Shown: one piece after another, positions 141 through 10,245 of the stretch
Layout of the letters: each line of letters opens with the position of its first letter
How positions within the stretch are numbered: position 1 is the stretch's first letter
Assembly: GCA_043816185.1 (NCBI GenBank)
Contig: JBDRIG010000017.1
Span: 1-10,472, forward strand
Length of the DNA stretch: 10,472 bases
Direction of reading: 5' to 3'
Origin: Elusimicrobiota bacterium
Lineage (GTDB): Bacteria; Elusimicrobiota; UBA8919
The notes under the pieces: generated by a model
The model's database searches: none
What the model was told of the DNA's origin: nothing
What the model saw: only the letters and a program-made list of their open reading frames with translations
Position numbers and translations under genes: made by a program

Positions 141-1319
141 CTAATTAATTTCAGCCACCACCATATCGGCAGAACCACTATCAACATAAACCTTTTTTAT
201 CTCACCACTATCAATCAATTTCTGAACTTCCACAGCAGTAGGTTTTTCATCTAATTTAATAAGCCTTGCTACTTCTTGAGTATAAATATATACCACTAAT
301 GAGTTGTCTGTTTCGCTCCATACACCAACAAGTTTTCCCTCGTTATATAACCATTCTTTTGATAACTTGTTGTCGTACGACACATATAATGGCTTACCAT
401 CAATACTATACCAAGTAGTCTCATTTGTTTTACGTTCAAATGTAAAACTTAGTGTTTGACTATCGTAAAACCACTCTTTTTCGGTAATCCCATCTTTAGT
501 TTTCATTACTTGTGGTTTACCATTTTTATAATAGGTGATATTACCGTGTAACTCTGTTGTTGTGTCAAGAACATAATTTCCATTATCATCGTTTATATAA
601 TTATATTTCATAACAATTTTTCCATACTTGTCTTCCGTGTGAGTCATATTACCTTTTTTATCAAAATATGTTTTGTTGTCATAAATATCGGTTTTTAATA
701 CTAATCTGCTATTTTCATCATAATAGTAGTGTGCAACCTCGCGATTCTCAAAATTTATATCAACCGACGCCTGTCCCTTTGTGTTATACACAGTCTTTGT
801 CATGGAAAGTTCGTCCAAAACCCATTCTGTATTTTTGCCATACTTATTATACTGGTACGACCTTACTTTGTTCATGTCTTTGTCATACTCTCCTATAGTT
901 TTACCACCAAAACCTAACTCCTGATAACCAAGAATTTCACCTTTCTCATTTTTGATAACACTCATAGTGTTACCTCGTTGCTTTTCTGTTTCTTTTTGCA
1001 AATTCCCTTCCTTATCAACCTCTTTCGATTTAATAGATAACGAGAATTCTTTGGAACCATCATTGTTAATCCTGAGTGTCAATTTACCACTTGGTGTGTA
1101 ATATAGTCGATTGCCATTTTTATCTTTTGCGGCAACGGGTCTGTTGGGAACAATATTCATCATATCCCTTGGTTTGCCAAACTCCGTAGTATCGATGTTG
1201 AGTGTTGCCTCTGGACCAAACCTTTCTTGCTGCGGCATTGGCAAACACAATAGTTCACCAATAGAAAGATGGCACACCAGCACTCCAACAATAATTTTTG
1301 TAGTGATTGTTTTTTTCAT
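141..1319 (-). CDS. Putative secreted protein with YD/RHS-like beta-hairpin repeats (about 392 aa)
   Basis: Start moved from the ORF-track 1523 to ATG 1319 because MKKTITTKIIVGVLVCHLSIGELLC looks like a signal peptide and the upstream 68 codons cross REP and promoter DNA. The body has recurring YD-like hairpins (YYYDENSRLVLKTD, YFDKKGNMTHTEDKYG, YDKDMNKV, YQYNKYGK). No RHS core or toxin tip is visible. Confidence 0.7.
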   Translation of the reverse strand: MKKTITTKIIVGVLVCHLSIGELLCLPMPQQERFGPEATLNIDTTEFGKPRDMMNIVPNRPVAAKDKNGNRLYYTPSGKLTLRINNDGSKEFSLSIKSKEVDKEGNLQKETEKQRGNTMSVIKNEKGEILGYQELGFGGKTIGEYDKDMNKVRSYQYNKYGKNTEWVLDELSMTKTVYNTKGQASVDINFENREVAHYYYDENSRLVLKTDIYDNKTYFDKKGNMTHTEDKYGKIVMKYNYINDDNGNYVLDTTTELHGNITYYKNGKPQVMKTKDGITEKEWFYDSQTLSFTFERKTNETTWYSIDGKPLYVSYDNKLSKEWLYNEGKLVGVWSETDNSLVVYIYTQEVARLIKLDEKPTAVEVQKLIDSGEIKKVYVDSGSADMVVAEIN

Positions 1320-1331
1320 ATTTGTAATGTA

Positions 1332-1388
1332 ACTATACGCTGACTTTGTGAAAAAGTTAGGGAATTTTTGTAAAAAATTTGTGAAAAC
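1332..1388 (-). promoter_or_regulatory. Promoter module 1: three TT(C/T)ACA boxes on an 11-bp phase plus a -10-like TATAGT
   Basis: Plus-strand TTTGTRAAAA at 1345, 1367 and 1378. On the minus strand TTCACA-N9-TATAGT (1352 to 1332) lies upstream of ATG 1319. Confidence 0.55.
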
Positions 1389-1425
1389 TGAAAAATGGCG
1401 GATAATTCCTGTAAATGTGGTAAAT

Positions 1426-1499
1426 GTAGACACGAATTCTACTCGTGCGATTTTGCACGATTGAAACCAACGGCGCACGGTCACACAGACCGTGCCTAC
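1426..1499. repeat. Inverted pair of GTAG-type REP-like hairpins (REPIN-like)
   Basis: Plus strand: GTAG-A-CACGA-attctac-TCGTG (1426-1447). Minus strand: GTAG-GCACGGTC-tgtgt-GACCGTGC (1499 to 1475, perfect 8-bp stem). A GTAG tetranucleotide next to a hairpin is the signature of RAYT-associated REPs. Confidence 0.6.
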
Positions 1500-1536
1500 A
1501 ACAAATGCATATGCACAAACCATGTCAACACAAGCC

Positions 1537-2626: not shown

Positions 2627-3805
2627 TCAAAGTCCGAGGTCGGCGGGCACCCTACCAAGCGAATGCAATATCGAAATTACCTTTTTTATTCTCTCGTCTA
2701 TTTCTAAATCAGTTCCAGCCCGATTCGGATAGATTTCGTAGAGATCGCGATATTTTTTCGGCGTGAGATTTACCATCAAAGAATTAGCACCCGCAAGCAA
2801 ACCCGATCTTGCAGCATTTTCTTTATCCAATGTCTCTAATGCTGTTGTAACCAAAATTTTACTTTCTGGATAGAGTATTCTTGCCCTCGCAGTTGTTTCC
2901 AAAACCAACTCAAGCGATGGAGATTGAAAATTACTTAATGGTGTATCTGGATGTGGAATAAAAGGCCCAAAAGAAAACAATTCTGTTTTTAAATCGTTCG
3001 ATAATTTGATATTGTTTAGAACATCTTTTTCCGTCTCATCTGGTAGACCAATTAAAAAACCAGTCATAATCAAATACCCAAGTTCGGTTAATTTTTTTAT
3101 TAAATTTAATCTATCGGATAATTTGCACTCGGGCTTTATTTTTTTATAAATTTCTTCGTTGCTCGTCTCAAATCGCAACAGTACTCCCCTAACACCTGCT
3201 TCATATAATTTTACAAAAGTCTGAAGTTCTCTTTCACCTATACTAAAAATAAGCAATATTTTACATTTTTCAAATATTTTTTTTGTTAATGCCAACAATT
3301 TTTCGTCGTCATACCATAAATCTTCGCCTGATTGTAACACCAATGCCTTAAAGCCCAATTTATTTACTGCGTAATCACACAGGTCAACTATTTCGTCAAT
3401 TTCCATTCTGTATCTTTTAAGTTTGCAATTATCTTTTCGCAAACCACAATACAAACAATTACTTCTACAATAATTCGAAAATTCTATAATTCCATGAACA
3501 CAAGATGCGTTGCCAATATGTTTTTGTCTAACGGAGTTTGCAATCTGATAGATATCTTTTGTTTGGCGAGTAAGTCGTAGGTCTGTTTCTTTTAGTTGGA
3601 AGAAAAATTCCTTCCAGGTTTGTAAAATTTCTTTTGCTTCGTCTGGTAAAACTTTTTGTATAACAAATCCACCTTGTGCATATACATAATCGCCTAATGC
3701 GAGTTCAATAAAATCGTTTCGTACTTTTTTGCTTATATCAAAATATTCTATCGTGATAATACTGCCAGTTATTTCAGTTACTTTGCCAGGAATTGCATAA
3801 CACAT
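2627..3805 (-). CDS. hydE: HypC-HydE fusion: N-terminal HypC/HupF chaperone domain plus HydE-like radical SAM maturase (392 aa)
   Basis: Likely start is ATG 3805, giving MCYAIPGKV...LGDYVYAQGGFVIQKV.PDEAKEIL.TW (HypC signature MC.aiPgkv, Cys2, residues about 1-66). It is followed by IANSVRQKHIG...GIIEFSNYCRSNCLYCGLR (CX3CX2C at 113/117/120), VLQSGED, LLRFET, GFLIGLP, GPFIPHPDTPL, TTALETL, and GANSLMVNLTPKKYRDLYEIYPNR (HydE-type C-terminal Yx2YP). Confidence 0.9.
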   Translation of the reverse strand: MCYAIPGKVTEITGSIITIEYFDISKKVRNDFIELALGDYVYAQGGFVIQKVLPDEAKEILQTWKEFFFQLKETDLRLTRQTKDIYQIANSVRQKHIGNASCVHGIIEFSNYCRSNCLYCGLRKDNCKLKRYRMEIDEIVDLCDYAVNKLGFKALVLQSGEDLWYDDEKLLALTKKIFEKCKILLIFSIGERELQTFVKLYEAGVRGVLLRFETSNEEIYKKIKPECKLSDRLNLIKKLTELGYLIMTGFLIGLPDETEKDVLNNIKLSNDLKTELFSFGPFIPHPDTPLSNFQSPSLELVLETTARARILYPESKILVTTALETLDKENAARSGLLAGANSLMVNLTPKKYRDLYEIYPNRAGTDLEIDERIKKVISILHSLGRVPADLGL

Positions 3806-3850
3806 AATAGTTACCAGTTGGCTCGTCTTCAACGAAATTGTTCGGTTGCT

Positions 3851-3909
3851 ACGCTTCCTCGGGACGACAGGCGAGATTGCCACGAGCCGATAAATCGGAC
3901 TCTGGCAAT
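3851..3909 (+). repeat. Degenerate REP-like repeat remnants between hydG and hypC-hydE
   Basis: Copy 2 of the 24-bp repeat (3851-3874). GAGATTGCCACG (3873-3884) is the exact reverse complement of 2019-2030 in the MITE-like element. Hairpin CCGAT-aa-ATCGG at 3887-3898. Confidence 0.65.
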
Positions 3910-3944
3910 AGCTAGCACAGAGCCCATCCGTCCCATAGTCCCTA

Positions 3945-5342
3945 CTAAAAAAATAGGTCTCTTTCGCCGTGTTTAATTTTATTTAATTTTTCTGTTGCTA
4001 ACTTTTTTATATTTTCATCTTCAATTTTATCAAGATAAAAATTTATTACTTCATAACCTTTTTTATAAACACTATCATGTTCAATGCGAGCAAAATCTTC
4101 AAGGTATTCGGCGAATGTTAAACAAGCATTCGGTCGACAAAAATTATGTATTTCACCGTCTTTGGCAAAATTCATAAACGCCTTACCAGTTCTATTTAAG
4201 CGATAGCAAGCAGTACAAAAACTTGGTAATAAATAGTCGTTTAAGACATCTTCAATAACCTCCACTAATGGTCTATGATCAGACAATATAAATTGCCCTG
4301 CATTTTTATGTCCTGCGTTTTCATCCTTTTTACCATACCCACCAGGCGAAGCATTTGAAGCGGCCGATGTTTGTGATATACCAACTTTGAACGCTAATTT
4401 TCTTATTTCTGGTTTTTCACGGGTTGAGATAATCATACCTGTATATGGTACTGCAAGTCGCAACACAGCAATAAGTTTGAGAAAATCGTCGTCGCTAACC
4501 CCATATTCTGGTTTGTAAGTAACCTCTGGTGCATTGCGAAATCTTGGTACAGAAATTGTGTGCGGTCCGACATCATATTTTTTATCAAAATATTGTGCAT
4601 GTGAAATTAAGGACAATACTTCAAATCGCCAATCGTAAAGCCCAAATAAAACTCCAATACCAAAATCATCAATTCCCGCCTCAAATGCGCGTTCATGGGC
4701 AGTAATTTGTCTATCATAATCCGCTTTTGGTCCACGATGCAATTTTCGATATGTTTCACGGTGATATGTTTCCTGAAATAATTGATAAGTACCAATCTTT
4801 GCTTGTTTTAATTTTTTATAATTTTCAACCGTTGTCGCTGCAATGTTTACATTTATCCGATGGATACTACCCTTATCTGTTTTGACAGAATATATTTTTT
4901 CAATCACATTAACGACATAATCAATTGGATTATCGATAGCGTCTTCGCCGAATTCAAGCAAAACTCTTTTATGCCCCATGTTTATTAAAAATTTTATTTG
5001 TTCTTCAATTTCTTCAATCGAAAGTTTTTCGCGAATCAAAATTTTATTTCTTATATGAAAATTGCAATACTCACAATCATTCATACAGTAATTTGAAACA
5101 TATAACGGTGCAAAAAATACCAATCGCTCGCCGTAAATCTCTTCTTTGATATTGGATGCAATACTAAATAATTCCTGAAGCAACTCGGCATCTTTAAAAT
5201 TTATTAAATATCCGATTTCTTTTAATTCCAAACCATTTTTCTTTTTTGCTTTATCTAATATATTTCTAATTATTTCTTTGGTAGGATTTTTTGTTTGAAT
5301 TAAAATATTATTTATTTTTTCTTCGTCTATTATTTTATTCAT
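3945..5342 (-). CDS. hydG: HydG radical SAM maturase (tyrosine lyase, Fe(CO)2CN synthon-forming; [FeFe]-hydrogenase H-cluster family)
   Basis: FAPLYVSNYCMNDCEYC (CX3CX2C), RINVNIAATT, IGTYQLFQETYH, GPHTISVPR (dangler-Fe His), PSFCTAC-X22-C (auxiliary cluster motif, absent from ThiH) and C-terminal GERDLFF. Starts 2 nt after the hypA stop. Confidence 0.95.
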   Translation of the reverse strand: MNKIIDEEKINNILIQTKNPTKEIIRNILDKAKKKNGLELKEIGYLINFKDAELLQELFSIASNIKEEIYGERLVFFAPLYVSNYCMNDCEYCNFHIRNKILIREKLSIEEIEEQIKFLINMGHKRVLLEFGEDAIDNPIDYVVNVIEKIYSVKTDKGSIHRINVNIAATTVENYKKLKQAKIGTYQLFQETYHRETYRKLHRGPKADYDRQITAHERAFEAGIDDFGIGVLFGLYDWRFEVLSLISHAQYFDKKYDVGPHTISVPRFRNAPEVTYKPEYGVSDDDFLKLIAVLRLAVPYTGMIISTREKPEIRKLAFKVGISQTSAASNASPGGYGKKDENAGHKNAGQFILSDHRPLVEVIEDVLNDYLLPSFCTACYRLNRTGKAFMNFAKDGEIHNFCRPNACLTFAEYLEDFARIEHDSVYKKGYEVINFYLDKIEDENIKKLATEKLNKIKHGERDLFF

Positions 5343-5344
5343 TT

Positions 5345-5590
5345 TTAATTTTTCCCTTCAATAGATTTAATAACAATTCCTTTTTCTATGATTTTTTCTA
5401 TCTCCAATTTTACGTTTTCAAGAATTGTTCCTTTAGACAAATACTCAAAACATAATTTTACTGATTCAACTGTTAAATGACCATCTTCACATAATGCAAG
5501 CGAAACGCGCTCTATCTTATTTATATTATTTTTTTGTGCTTGACTGAGAATCTCTTTTATTACCGATTCGGTAATTGACCATTCATGCAT
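5345..5590 (-). CDS. hypA: Short HypA/HybF nickel chaperone lacking the zinc-finger domain (81 aa)
   Basis: ATG 5590 with SD GGAGG 5 nt upstream gives MHEWSI (Ni-binding MHE). It retains CFEYLSKGTILENVKLEIE and the terminal strand IVIKSIE but has no CxxC motifs. The start overlaps the protease stop. Confidence 0.88.
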   Translation of the reverse strand: MHEWSITESVIKEILSQAQKNNINKIERVSLALCEDGHLTVESVKLCFEYLSKGTILENVKLEIEKIIEKGIVIKSIEGKN

Positions 5591-7457: not shown

Positions 7458-8224
7458 TTTTTATTTTCCTCAAATTGGGTCTGTTTTAAGTTGGGATTAA
7501 ATATAAACATACCCATCTTTCTTTTTATATCCTCAATAGAATATCCTTTATCTAAAAGAATCTGAACCTCCGACGCATAATTCGCTTCGACAACGGGCCC
7601 ATGACAACCAGTACACGGAATATTATTTCCAGGACATCTTGCCTTACAACCCTCGACTGTAACGGGACCCAAGCAAAAAAGACCTCTTTCAACCAATAGA
7701 CATTCATACTCCATCATTTTACATTCGCTGCACAAAGCAAAATTTGGAACTTCCAATACATCGCCGTGCAAAAATGCGGTAAAAACACGCAAAAACCATT
7801 TCTTCTCTATAGGACAACCTGGAAGTGATAAATCAACTTTTACGAAATTTTTAAGTGGCTGTGCGGGAATAGAATCAAAATACTCCACGCCTTTTTCTCC
7901 GTAAACATTTTTTAAAAGTTCCTCTCTCGGAACATCGTTTTTCATAGACGAAATTCCGCCACAAATGGCACAGGTTCCGATAGCAACTAAAACACCTGCT
8001 CTACTTCTTATATCTTTAAGATGTTCGAGCTCTTTTTTGGTTGAAACAACCCCTTCAACAAACGCAACATCAATTTCTTTTTCAACATTCCCCGTCTGAG
8101 CAATCACAAATGATTTTATATCAATTTTCGATACAATATCTAAAAACTCGTCTTCACAATTTAGTATCATTAGTTGATCGCCAGCGCAACCAGACAATCC
8201 ATAGATGCCGATTTTTGGTTTCAT
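7454..8224 (-). CDS. hyhS: Group 3b [NiFe]-hydrogenase small (delta) subunit (HyhS/HydD)
   Basis: GLSGCAGDQL (CxxD in place of CxxC), DVAFVEG, AIGTCA, LPGCP, CSEC..C..CLGPVT.EGC.ARCP..C.GC.G. No Tat signal. ATGA overlaps at both ends. Confidence 0.95.
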   Translation of the reverse strand: MKPKIGIYGLSGCAGDQLMILNCEDEFLDIVSKIDIKSFVIAQTGNVEKEIDVAFVEGVVSTKKELEHLKDIRSRAGVLVAIGTCAICGGISSMKNDVPREELLKNVYGEKGVEYFDSIPAQPLKNFVKVDLSLPGCPIEKKWFLRVFTAFLHGDVLEVPNFALCSECKMMEYECLLVERGLFCLGPVTVEGCKARCPGNNIPCTGCHGPVVEANYASEVQILLDKGYSIEDIKRKMGMFIFNPNLKQTQFEENKK

Positions 8225-9051
8225 ACAACCTCCGGCATATTTATAGCATCCCAGTATGTAAAAATGGGGCCATCAGTGCAAGTATATTTATGACCAACGC
8301 CACAATGCAGACACTTCCCAATTCCACATTGCATTCTTCTTTCTAAAGACATCATTATTTTATCTTTGTCAAAACCAATGCTAATAAGTTTCTTTAAGAC
8401 AAATTTGTACATTATGGGTGGTCCACAAATACCTGCATATGTTGTTTTCGCATCAAAGTTCACATAATTAAATAATTCGGTTACCACTCCAATATTAGAT
8501 TTCCATTTTCCCGATTCATCTTTATCAACTGTTAAAAGACATTTTATATCTTTTCTATTTAGAAGTGAGACAAATTCATCCTTAAAAAGTATCTCGTCAG
8601 GATTTTTTGCTCCATACATAAGAGCAATATCCTTAAAATCATTTCTATTATCGAGTGTATACCAAACAAGAGATCTGAGAGGTGCTATACCGATACCACC
8701 TGCAACAATTAATAGATTACTACCCTTTATTTTTTCAATAAAATATCCATTCCCGTAGGGCCCTCTCAAACCGATTATATCGTTTTCTTTTAATTTAAAT
8801 AGAGCACCCGTAACGCTGCCTGCACATCTGACACAGAGTTCTATAATTCCTGGTTTTGTCGGCGATGAAGAAATTGATATTGGTGCTTCGCCAGTTCCCA
8901 AAACAGACAGCATCACAAATTGACCAGGCCTGTGATTAAACTCTTGTCTTACTTTCTCATCTTCAAATCTTATTTGAAACAATTTAGTATCTTCGGTCTG
9001 CGGAATAATACCAATTATTTTTGCTAAATATGGTTGATACGGATTTTTCAC
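8221..9051 (-). CDS. hyhG: Group 3b hydrogenase gamma subunit, FAD/NAD(P)-binding plus [2Fe-2S] (HyhG; AsrB family)
   Basis: PGQFVML, GEAPISISS, RGPYGNG, AGGIGIAPLRS, CGPPIM and ERRMQCGIGKCLHC..CTDGP. SD AGGAGG (9063-9058) fits GTG 9051 (6-nt spacer) better than TTG 9054. Confidence 0.94.
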   Translation of the reverse strand: MKNPYQPYLAKIIGIIPQTEDTKLFQIRFEDEKVRQEFNHRPGQFVMLSVLGTGEAPISISSSPTKPGIIELCVRCAGSVTGALFKLKENDIIGLRGPYGNGYFIEKIKGSNLLIVAGGIGIAPLRSLVWYTLDNRNDFKDIALMYGAKNPDEILFKDEFVSLLNRKDIKCLLTVDKDESGKWKSNIGVVTELFNYVNFDAKTTYAGICGPPIMYKFVLKKLISIGFDKDKIMMSLERRMQCGIGKCLHCGVGHKYTCTDGPIFTYWDAINMPEVV

Positions 9052-9104
9052 CAAACTCCTCCTATAAAATTTTCAATTCTATTTTTTAATTTTTGCGAAT
9101 TACT

Positions 9105-9198
9105 GCAGGATAGATCCTGCGAGCGACTACCAGTATGATTTATTGGTAGATTTATTTGTAGCCGCACCATCTTATGGTACGCAAATCACCACGAGTGA
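9105..9198. other. Cluster of stem-loops, including a GTAG-REP-like remnant, in the beta-gamma intergenic region
   Basis: GCAGGA-taga-TCCTGC (9105-9120), CTACCA...TGGTAG (9127-9149), GTAG-cc-GCACCAT-ctt-ATGGTAC (9158-9180) and TCAC-cacga-GTGA (9186-9198). Confidence 0.5.
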
Positions 9199-9204
9199 CT
9201 TGGT

Positions 9205-10245
9205 TTATTCCAACGTTTCTGCCGTCTGAATTTTATTTAATTCTTCAACAATATTAATTTTTGCAGGACAGAATTCCATACATCTTCCACAGCCAACACA
9301 ACTCGGTCTACCAAAATCGCCAGCAAACGATTGTTGTTTATGTAACCACCTATGTCTAAACCTATCGGAACGGGATTTTCTGAAATTATGCCCTCCGGCA
9401 ACAATGGCATGATCACGAAATAGACAGCAATCCCATTGGCGACTTCTATTGCCTGATTCAAGATTAAGACCAACAATCTCATCGAATATTCTATAACAGT
9501 AGCAAGTTGGGCAAGTCATTGAACAGGTACCACAACTTAAACATTTATTTCCAAGTTCATCCCATAATTTACTTTTGTATTCTAAATCCATAATCTCAGG
9601 CAGGTCTCTTATATCAAGTGATCTCTTGAAACTTTTTTTTCTCAGCAATGAATGATTTTTATATTCGTCAATATCTTCTTTACTTATTTCCACAAATAAT
9701 TCCTTGGAAGAACTCACCATATCATCGCCTTTATTTGTTCCAACTTTAACCATATATGCGTCTGTTATTTCTGATAAAAACAGGTCAAACCCTTTATCGA
9801 CATAATCGGTTCCCATCGAATTGCAAAAACAAAATTCATCAGGTAGACAACTTATGCCTATTAAGAGAATATTTTCTTTTCTTGCAAAATAATATTCATC
9901 TCTGTATTGACCTGAAAAAACCAAATCTAATATCTCGATTCCATAAATATCGCAGGAATGAACGCCAAATATTATATCATGATTTTTAAGCGATTCAATT
10001 GGTTGCACAAAACCACTTTTTGAAAATTTAAACATTGTTTCAGTGGGATGGTAGAAATATTTTTTTAATGGAAGAATGGTTCTTTGATAACCAAGTTGCA
10101 TCTTTGAAACATCAGAATCGTTTTCCATTTTTTTGAAGGCAAAAGATTTTTCACCATTTTTTATTGGAATATGAACTTGACCCATTTTCCTTAAATTAAG
10201 CACAAAACTTGTAAGATTATTTTTAGAGAGTTTTAATGTCTTCAT
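9205..10245 (-). CDS. hyhB: Group 3b hydrogenase beta subunit, 4Fe-4S dicluster protein (HyhB/HydB; AsrA family)
   Basis: FGVHSCD, C..DEFCFC, CLSCGTCSMTCPTCYC, RQWDCC and CVGCGRCMEFCPAKI. SD AGGA lies upstream. First gene of a beta-gamma-delta-alpha order. Confidence 0.94.
   Translation of the reverse strand: MKTLKLSKNNLTSFVLNLRKMGQVHIPIKNGEKSFAFKKMENDSDVSKMQLGYQRTILPLKKYFYHPTETMFKFSKSGFVQPIESLKNHDIIFGVHSCDIYGIEILDLVFSGQYRDEYYFARKENILLIGISCLPDEFCFCNSMGTDYVDKGFDLFLSEITDAYMVKVGTNKGDDMVSSSKELFVEISKEDIDEYKNHSLLRKKSFKRSLDIRDLPEIMDLEYKSKLWDELGNKCLSCGTCSMTCPTCYCYRIFDEIVGLNLESGNRSRQWDCCLFRDHAIVAGGHNFRKSRSDRFRHRWLHKQQSFAGDFGRPSCVGCGRCMEFCPAKINIVEELNKIQTAETLE

Follow-up and report, generated by a model that had tools for sequence, protein, structure and literature searches.

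The window analysed here is the whole 10,472-base contig (C17; GenBank JBDRIG010000017.1) of an Elusimicrobiota bacterium (assembly GCA_043816185.1), whose 1.44-Mb genome comprises 112 contigs, with an estimated completeness of 94.3% and contamination of 0.5%. The last gene of a [NiFe] hydrogenase operon on this contig joins in one frame the [NiFe] chaperone HypC and a HydE-type radical S-adenosylmethionine (SAM) enzyme, and it follows hydG. [NiFe] and [FeFe] hydrogenases are textbook examples of unrelated enzymes with unrelated assembly lines. We propose, at a probability of roughly three in four, that HydG and the HypC-HydE fusion would replace HypCDEF in supplying the iron half of the [NiFe] site, with HypC as the delivery arm. 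The operon likewise appears likely to be a self-contained [NiFe] cassette, the maturation part of which would consist of a protease, a shortened HypA (mini-HypA), HydG and HypC-HydE. On the genomic evidence given below, the organism probably builds its [NiFe] enzymes by an undescribed route. The fusion gene is laid out as follows.

2627-3805, minus strand: HypC-HydE fusion gene, a single open frame from ATG 3805 to the stop at 2627, 392 residues
3614-3805, minus strand: HypC domain, residues 1-64, with Cys2 after Met1 (PF01455, 53.9 bits)
3563-3613, minus strand: linker, the end of the HypC C-terminal helix continuing into the HydE part (AlphaFold2 secondary structure, predicted local distance difference test (pLDDT) >90)
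2627-3562, minus strand: HydE-type radical-SAM barrel, residues 82-392 (TIGR03956, fold and clade-specific residues)

An earlier note, made from the letters of this DNA, had read the gene as HypC, a helical linker and a HydE-like barrel in one uninterrupted frame, and profile searches bore out this reading. In Pfam, HupF_HypC matched residues 1-64 at 53.9 bits against a cut-off of 28.5 (E value 2e-14), covering profile positions 1-65 of 65; Radical_SAM matched residues 107-266 (66.5 bits) and BATS residues 282-362 (23.8 bits, cut-off 22.2). TIGR00074 (HypC) scored 42.8 bits, under its cut-off of 48. The top NCBIfam model was TIGR03956 (HydE) with 245.8 bits, slightly below its cut-off of 254.6, which aligned fusion residues 79-384 with model positions 25-330 of 340, the first 24 or so HydE positions being absent; PylB (127.5 bits) and BioB (83.4 bits) scored well below it. 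When the protein was searched against solved structures, Thermotoga maritima HydE was the best match over residues 82-388 (E value 4e-67), and Thermococcus kodakarensis HypC matched residues 1-67 (E value 2e-9). An AlphaFold2 model built from 111 aligned sequences (pLDDT 95.2, predicted template-modelling score 0.92) placed five strands, a single helix spanning residues 54-78 and then the barrel in this order, in line with the predicted helical linker. Foldseek ranked T. maritima HydE (3cix) first (E value 9e-34, template-modelling score 0.84) and PylB second (2e-22).

The start codon and conserved residues were examined across relatives. The radical-SAM CX3CX2C cysteines (C113, C117 and C120) were invariant in the aligned fusions, and the C-terminal auxiliary-cluster cysteines were absent from the fusion barrel. 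M1, C2, Y3, I5 and P6 were also invariant, with an M-C-Y start in 20 of 20 aligned relatives. All 120 best database matches contained both domains, at lengths of 375-415 and mostly 392 residues. Because of these lengths and the shared M-C-Y start, ATG 3805 is the right start, as the earlier note had argued, rather than GTG 3883, the frame of which reads through a 24-base copy (3851-3874) of a repeat found across the genome. Only one sequencing run contained any part of this DNA: a 213-base contig of a groundwater metatranscriptome was identical over 2812-3021; it misses the domain junction and is no proof of transcription.

Profile searches of the 94.3% complete genome found neither HypD nor HypB, and no [FeFe] hydrogenase; the fusion holds the only HypC domain. 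Sub-threshold HypE and HypF matches turned out to be ThiL, PurM, acylphosphatase, TsaC and TsaD, and no HydF match exceeded the cut-off, the sub-threshold ones covering the GTPase part only. In a genome of the same genus, surE and tgt flank hypC (79.5 bits), hypD and hypE (455.6 bits). The orthologues of surE and tgt in the window's genome (75% and 80% identity) stand 164 bases apart on contig C61 with nothing between them; since both genes adjoin on one contig, the absence of hypCDE is a deletion and not an assembly gap. HypD was present in all ten other genomes of the family, none of which carried the fusion. The hypD of the same-genus genome (locus L104, contig C73 of genome G085, 8715-9807) is split into two overlapping frames covering model positions 28-190 and 188-366, which reflects either a frameshift marking Hyp decay in the genus or a sequencing error.

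The same genome retains a second, intact [NiFe] hydrogenase on contig C70 (13757-17240; 7757-11241 of locus L105), together with a dedicated HyaD-type protease; this enzyme has a small subunit in which no twin-arginine translocation (Tat) signal is obvious, and a large subunit scoring 695 bits to NF033181. Orthologues of this large subunit, 80-89% identical, occur in five of the ten HypD-bearing family genomes, a pattern that marks the C70 enzyme as vertically inherited. A 233-residue protein of no family follows these genes. For the large subunit of the window, no relative above 39% identity was found in a sample of 151 genomes of the phylum; its best relatives overall were 76% identical, and the next 57-61% (Desantisbacteria and unclassified bins), and the hydrogenase cassette probably arrived in one piece. 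Contig C17 matches its genome in guanine-plus-cytosine (GC) content (0.344 versus 0.342 ± 0.010), in tetranucleotide correlation (0.990 versus a median of 0.992) and in a shared repeat family, and is therefore not a binning error.

We then determined how widely the fusion occurs. Two N-terminal peptide patterns, searched in contigs of one genome per species, gave 322 matching stretches, 286 of which were confirmed by tblastn. Because the uninterrupted architecture recurs in these 286 loci, the fusion is neither an assembly artefact nor unique to this assembly. Locus comparisons were made on 80 loci kept from the 286, coming from Omnitrophota, WOR-3, Planctomycetota (including Scalindua), Elusimicrobiota, Firestonebacteria and Ignavibacteria, and further from Lentisphaerae, delta-proteobacterial bins, Margulisiibacteriota, Altiarchaeota, Woesearchaeota and Nanoarchaeia. 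HydG (at least 40% identity, tblastn) was encoded in 53 of the 80 loci, and in 46 of those 53 it lay at most 300 bases from the fusion. In two Omnitrophota loci (L013, 7121-8575; L021, 7136-8584), a protein of 483-485 residues without a Pfam family is encoded directly upstream of hydG; it follows a molybdopterin oxidoreductase and could be a further partner of the module. A full HMMER search over 1.8 billion cluster representatives returned 422 proteins at E values up to 1e-30, and 22 of the best 150 of these contained a HypC domain according to a hidden Markov model (HMM) built from the alignment.

Fifty fusion genomes were picked from the 80 before any result was seen, for taxon spread and longer contigs. 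A [NiFe] large subunit was found in 48 of the 50, a count in which many matches in small genomes cover the first 69 model positions only and group 4 enzymes are not separated from NuoD-like proteins. HydG exceeded its cut-off in 46. HypD was detected in one genome and HypE in one, and HypF exceeded its cut-off in none of the 50, with one partial match. Among the control genomes, the four well-known ones with [NiFe] enzymes, and no others, gave HypD, HypE and HypF matches. As a further control, the 151 genomes of the window's phylum, drawn evenly, were tallied by hand with a [NiFe] large subunit called at E values up to 1e-10. Among the 68 genomes with a large subunit, 57 had HypD only, 9 the fusion only, none both and 2 neither; among the 83 without one, 3 had HypD only, none the fusion, none both and 80 neither. 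In these counts kin are not independent, and 35 canonical-HydE-like matches were classed without an individual check of the N-terminal domain. The nine fusion-only genomes, none of which had HypD, span six families.

The earlier note had proposed that the HydE domain takes the place of HypD. This proposal was supported in part: what the data favour is that the fusion together with HydG would stand in for the Hyp iron-ligand machinery, as suggested by the near absence of HypD (1 of 50 fusion genomes and 0 of 9 in the phylum sample), by the syntenic hypCDE deletion and by proteins in which HypC, HydE and HydG form a single chain. Two such triple fusions were found, P0122 (906 residues) and P0135 (881 residues), along with a HydE-HydG chain without HypC (P0157, 803 residues).

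The fusions come in two lengths. A form of about 430 residues retains the N-terminal HydE helices that are missing from the 392-residue form, and longer members exceed the TIGR03956 cut-off (P0121, 265.4 bits; P0136, 263.4 bits). Thus the remark of the earlier note that the first helices of the barrel seem replaced holds for the 392-residue form and fails for the longer form of the same clade. In a barrel-domain tree of 71 rows, made by a short IQ-TREE search with support from the Shimodaira-Hasegawa-like approximate likelihood ratio test (SH-aLRT) only, all 22 fusions fell within one set of 27 rows (SH-aLRT 98), separate from 42 canonical HydE, and the 392-residue form nested within the long form (SH-aLRT 99). 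The five unfused rows of the set were two fragments, one probably 5′-truncated sequence and two stand-alone proteins, one of which has the Cys/His pair of the fusion clade described next.

The 22 fusions were compared residue by residue with the 42 canonical HydE, with T. maritima numbering taken from pairwise alignment.

Position 104 (T. maritima R54): His in 22 of 22 fusions; Arg in 41 of 42 canonical HydE
Position 102 (T. maritima H52): Cys in 22 of 22 fusions; His, Tyr or Phe in canonical HydE
Position 207 (T. maritima R155): Gly in 17, Ala in 4 and Ser in 1 of the fusions; Arg in 42 of 42 canonical HydE
Position 186 (T. maritima T134): Phe, Ile or Val in fusions; Thr in 95% of canonical HydE
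Position 342 (no T. maritima residue assigned): Ser in 20 of 22 fusions; Val in 98% of canonical HydE

Both groups share the SAM-cluster cysteines as well as the residues corresponding to T. maritima V105, L157, T269 and M291. According to the accessible text of PMC11826987, R54, T134 and R155 of T. maritima HydE, together with T269, contact the cyanide (CN) ligands of the iron units, and dimerisation in the lower cavity involves two Fe(I) units kept in place by M224 and M291; the accessible part of PMC10114646 describes an anion site, S3, in this cavity that is important for function. Since three CN-contacting positions are changed clade-wide, the aligned sequences place a Cys/His pair on one strand where canonical HydE has an arginine-lined anion pocket, and the fusion clade has thus exchanged the one for the other. 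We infer that the Cys102/His104 pair may bind a single iron unit.

From these observations we suggest the following route. As it does in [FeFe] maturation, HydG would cleave tyrosine and assemble an Fe-CO/CN synthon on the cluster at its C-terminus, and the HydE-type barrel of the fusion would take this synthon and strip its cysteine by radical-SAM chemistry. The barrel would not pair two irons into a 2Fe precursor; its remodelled lower cavity would hold a single Fe-CO/CN unit, which the tethered HypC would take on Cys2 and insert into apo large subunits, namely those of the operon's own enzyme and of the second [NiFe] hydrogenase of the genome. Mini-HypA would add nickel, and each enzyme's own protease would trim the tail. 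A bolder version, which we regard as tentative and clearly short of an even chance, would make tyrosine the source of all three diatomic ligands at the [NiFe] site, with the HydE descendant turned from making a two-iron precursor to acting as an "unloader" through its Cys102/His104 site and two genes doing the work of four. After radical removal of the cysteine from the HydG synthon, the single Fe-CO/CN unit would be parked on Cys102/His104 at the barrel's bottom, a second cyanide would replace one CO, and Fe(CO)(CN)2 would be passed to Cys2 of HypC. In that case hypC, hypD, hypE and hypF would be dispensable, neither carbamoyl phosphate nor ATP-dependent cyanation would be needed, and a foreign hydrogenase that once depended on Hyp could likewise be matured by the cassette within the same cell.

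Several points weigh against the replacement of HypCDEF by HydG and the fusion. Orthodox HydG makes Fe(CO)2(CN), whereas the [NiFe] site needs Fe(CO)(CN)2, so that the ligand counts do not match. At the position of T. maritima Met224 the window fusion has Leu, although most fusions have Met, and in the fusion HypC domain Gln44, invariant across the 20 aligned fusions, takes the position filled by His in the canonical HypC of a same-genus genome; this conserved His, in the V-H-x-G-F strand, we take to be His51 of Escherichia coli HypC. A [NiFe] large subunit was found by a purpose-built HMM within the available flanks of only 26 of the 80 loci (19 by a motif scan); where the flanks reached 6 kb or more, the figures were 16 of 33 loci (both sides) and 23 of 50 (upstream side). 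Some HydG/fusion pairs stand among unrelated genes, and others stand beside HypA or HycI and Mrp-type subunits. Linkage of the fusion to structural genes is thus common and not the rule. Fusion genome G011 also carries HypD and HypE. In G006 and G011, the fusion pair clusters with HydF, canonical HydE and [FeFe] hydrogenase, so that HydG, at least, is shared in these two genomes. The two [NiFe]-bearing phylum genomes with neither system (2 of 68) are G053, in which the operon runs off the contig end, and G062, which is 78% complete. All genomes compared are metagenome bins, and the limits given above on the [NiFe] counts point the same way. A complex prediction for the large subunit with HypC residues 1-78, run without controls, gave scores of 0.04 and 0.22 where the mark was 0.32, and is evidence neither way.

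Three other explanations were weighed, and each is contradicted by the counts. It is hardly credible that the fusion is simply a HydE for [FeFe] maturation with a decorative HypC-like domain. Databases do label its relatives "[FeFe] hydrogenase H-cluster radical SAM maturase HydE", HydE is its best match by family and by fold, and in G006 and G011 the pair has HydF and an [FeFe] hydrogenase nearby. The window's genome, however, has neither [FeFe] hydrogenase nor HydF; an [FeFe] hydrogenase was found in only 7 of the 50 fusion genomes and HydF over its cut-off in 4, leaving 43 and 46 genomes, respectively, without them, and three CN-contacting cavity residues are systematically altered. Moreover, a separate canonical HydE (308-386 bits) was kept beside the fusion (230-265 bits) in all five fusion genomes tested, namely four of the seven that have an [FeFe] hydrogenase, plus another that has HydF. 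On a single contig of G006 the order is HydG, fusion, three other genes, HydF, and then [FeFe] hydrogenase and canonical HydE. G006, G011 and G012 have a single HydG each, and one HydG seems to feed two different HydE-type enzymes in these genomes. The G006 cluster (L017 on contig C2, 6444-20714) is made up of HydG and the fusion along with NfnAB-like genes, an epimerase, a radical-SAM protein of 730 residues, HydF, two Rex-like regulators and a sensor kinase; the [FeFe] hydrogenase and canonical HydE are encoded immediately past it.

That HydG and the fusion give only part of the ligand set, for example CO, while cyanide and the scaffold come from overlooked Hyp proteins or an unrecognised analogue, is unlikely. 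This explanation would account for the CO:CN ratio of the HydG product, which is wrong for [NiFe], and it draws on the origin of all genomes from bins, on the presence of both systems in G011 and on the proteins of 483-485 residues and no family that precede hydG in L013 and L021. Against it, HypD, HypE and HypF are each missing from 49-50 of the 50 fusion genomes and from nine of nine in the phylum sample, hypCDE is deleted at the syntenic site in the window's genome, and no gene follows the fusion in the operon, the next 1.1 kb being non-coding. Very unlikely, in our view, is a role of the pair in making an iron-carbonyl/cyanide species for a target other than a hydrogenase, or a HypC that only feeds iron to radical-SAM enzymes. 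The 54 of 80 loci that lack a large subunit in the available flanks and the varied neighbours speak for such a role, yet a [NiFe] large subunit was present in 48 of 50 fusion genomes, the fusion in none of the 83 phylum-sample genomes without one, the invariant Met-Cys start is a hallmark by which HypC delivery is recognised, and in the window the gene comes last in a hydrogenase operon that also encodes a protease and HypA.

The remaining features of the operon, the genes of which are all on the minus strand with the fusion last, are these.

9208-10245, minus strand: hydrogenase beta subunit (ShyB/HydB-like, 4Fe-4S); Fer4_22 106.6 bits, sulfhyd_ShyB 349 bits, below the equivalog cut-off
8224-9054, minus strand: hydrogenase gamma subunit (FAD/NAD(P)-binding, Fe-S); NAD_binding_1, DHODB_Fe-S_bind and FAD_binding_6, NF006220 330.8 bits
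7457-8224, minus strand: [NiFe] hydrogenase small (delta) subunit; Oxidored_q6 91.8 bits, sulfhyd_HydD 196 bits
6156-7457, minus strand: [NiFe] large (alpha) subunit, sulfhydrogenase-like (group 3b-like); NiFeSe_Hases (PF00374) 116.3 bits, ShyA 381 bits
5583-6149, minus strand: maturation endopeptidase (FrhD/HycI type); HycI 91.2 bits, TIGR00130 142.2 bits, above its cut-off of 134.95
5345-5590, minus strand: mini-HypA; Pfam HypA 52.2 bits, profile positions 1-67 of 112 only
3945-5342, minus strand: HydG (tyrosine lyase); TIGR03955 531.2 bits against a cut-off of 312.15
3806-3944, no strand: spacer between hydG and the fusion, 139 bases, GC-richer, containing the copy of the genome-wide repeat at 3851-3874

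The four structural genes encode a sulfhydrogenase-like (group 3b-like) [NiFe] hydrogenase. Its large subunit has both metal-site motifs of [NiFe] large subunits: RxCxxCxxxH as R-I-C-A-I-C-S-S-S-H close to the N-terminus, and DPCxxCxxH as D-P-C-I-S-C-A-V-H, after which comes a C-terminal tail of 7 residues. Mini-HypA has the nickel-binding N-domain only, with an M-H-E-W start, a length of 81-85 residues and no zinc-finger CxxC pairs, and its stop overlaps the hydG start. Counterparts of 82-84 residues lie upstream of hydG in other phyla (L056, about 8362; L026, about 8252; L049, about 8153), so mini-HypA looks like a conserved companion travelling with the HydG/fusion module. HydG is orthodox, with both the N-terminal CX3CX2C and the C-terminal CX2CX22C, and it matches solved HydG (4wcx) end to end (E value 8e-148).

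The spacer repeat belongs to a family (D11; core of 21 bases, copies of 21-24 bases) with 10 copies on 9 contigs and none in a reversed control; a second copy in the window lies at 2170-2193, and others are on C71, C79, C15, C46, C72, C110 (two copies) and C108. The copy at 3851-3874 separates hydG from the fusion, two genes that in related loci stand with hardly any gap. The idea that the spacer is a structured RNA was rejected: its fold is no better than those of shuffled sequences (z -1.25), and no Rfam family was found in the window. Downstream of the fusion, 1524-2626 is 1.1 kb without a credible gene, and the operon therefore ends with the fusion. This gap includes a pentanucleotide-like microsatellite at about 2470-2520 and several GC-rich palindromic elements at about 1990-2230 in surrounding DNA of 34% GC. 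A 460-residue open reading frame beyond it (141-1523, minus strand) was considered as a stand-in for HydF or HypD and rejected: it matched no Pfam or NCBIfam family and is separated from the fusion by the repeat-bearing non-coding gap of 1.1 kb. Its likely ATG is near 1318, followed by a hydrophobic stretch and Asn/Lys/Tyr-rich repetitive sequence, and the product is probably secreted and unconnected with the operon. Near the contig end (95-140), about 27 consecutive G precede runs of C, a tract that may have arisen as an artefact of assembly or sequencing.

Compared with known systems, the fusion resembles T. maritima HydE (3cix/7o1o) in its (beta-alpha)8 barrel (about 38% identity over fusion residues 82-388), in the retained CX3CX2C and QSGED strand and in having HydG as partner. 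It differs from HydE in being fused to HypC, in lacking the first 24 or so model positions and the auxiliary-cluster cysteines, in scoring below the family cut-off, in the clade-wide changes of R54 to His, H52 to Cys, R155 to Gly and T134 to a hydrophobic residue, and in occurring without HydF and [FeFe] hydrogenase or, where those exist, beside a separate canonical HydE. The N-terminal part resembles HypC/HybG/HupF (as in the E. coli hypABCDEF set) in its PF01455 domain, Met-Cys start, strands and C-terminal helix and, like canonical HypC, occurs in a [NiFe] operon with HypA and a protease; delivery to the large subunit is presumed. Unlike canonical HypC, it has no HypD, HypE or HypF partners in the genome, has Gln for His and is joined to a radical-SAM enzyme. 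As in the HydG/HydE/HydF pathway, an orthodox HydG adjoins a HydE-type enzyme, but there is neither a HydF scaffold nor a HydA target, and the product would be a single-iron unit rather than a 2Fe precursor.

A full-text literature search, with supplements and subscription journals outside its scope, found no study of a HydG/HydE route to [NiFe] and one passing mention. [quoted passage not shown] In their accessible text, PMC9431212 and PMC11216029 treat the [NiFe] and [FeFe] maturation systems as separate, and Table S3 of PMC11216029 lists archaeal HydE/F/G matches that could bear on priority. New here are the syntenic hypCDE deletion with a retained inherited hydrogenase, the table of HypD versus fusion, the coexistence with canonical HydE, the residue map with its remodelled cavity, the HypC-HydE-HydG triple fusions and the recurring zinc-less HypA.

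To our knowledge, HypCDEF are treated as universal for [NiFe] enzymes, and a radical-SAM, tyrosine-based route, if true, would overturn this view. It would also give these anaerobes a concrete source of the CO ligand without HypX, would explain active hydrogenases in hundreds of uncultured lineages with seemingly incomplete hyp sets, and would provide a module of two genes with which to produce [NiFe] hydrogenases heterologously. The genus itself provides a natural experiment, in which one member has hypCDE and another has the deletion and the cassette, with its inherited second hydrogenase intact.

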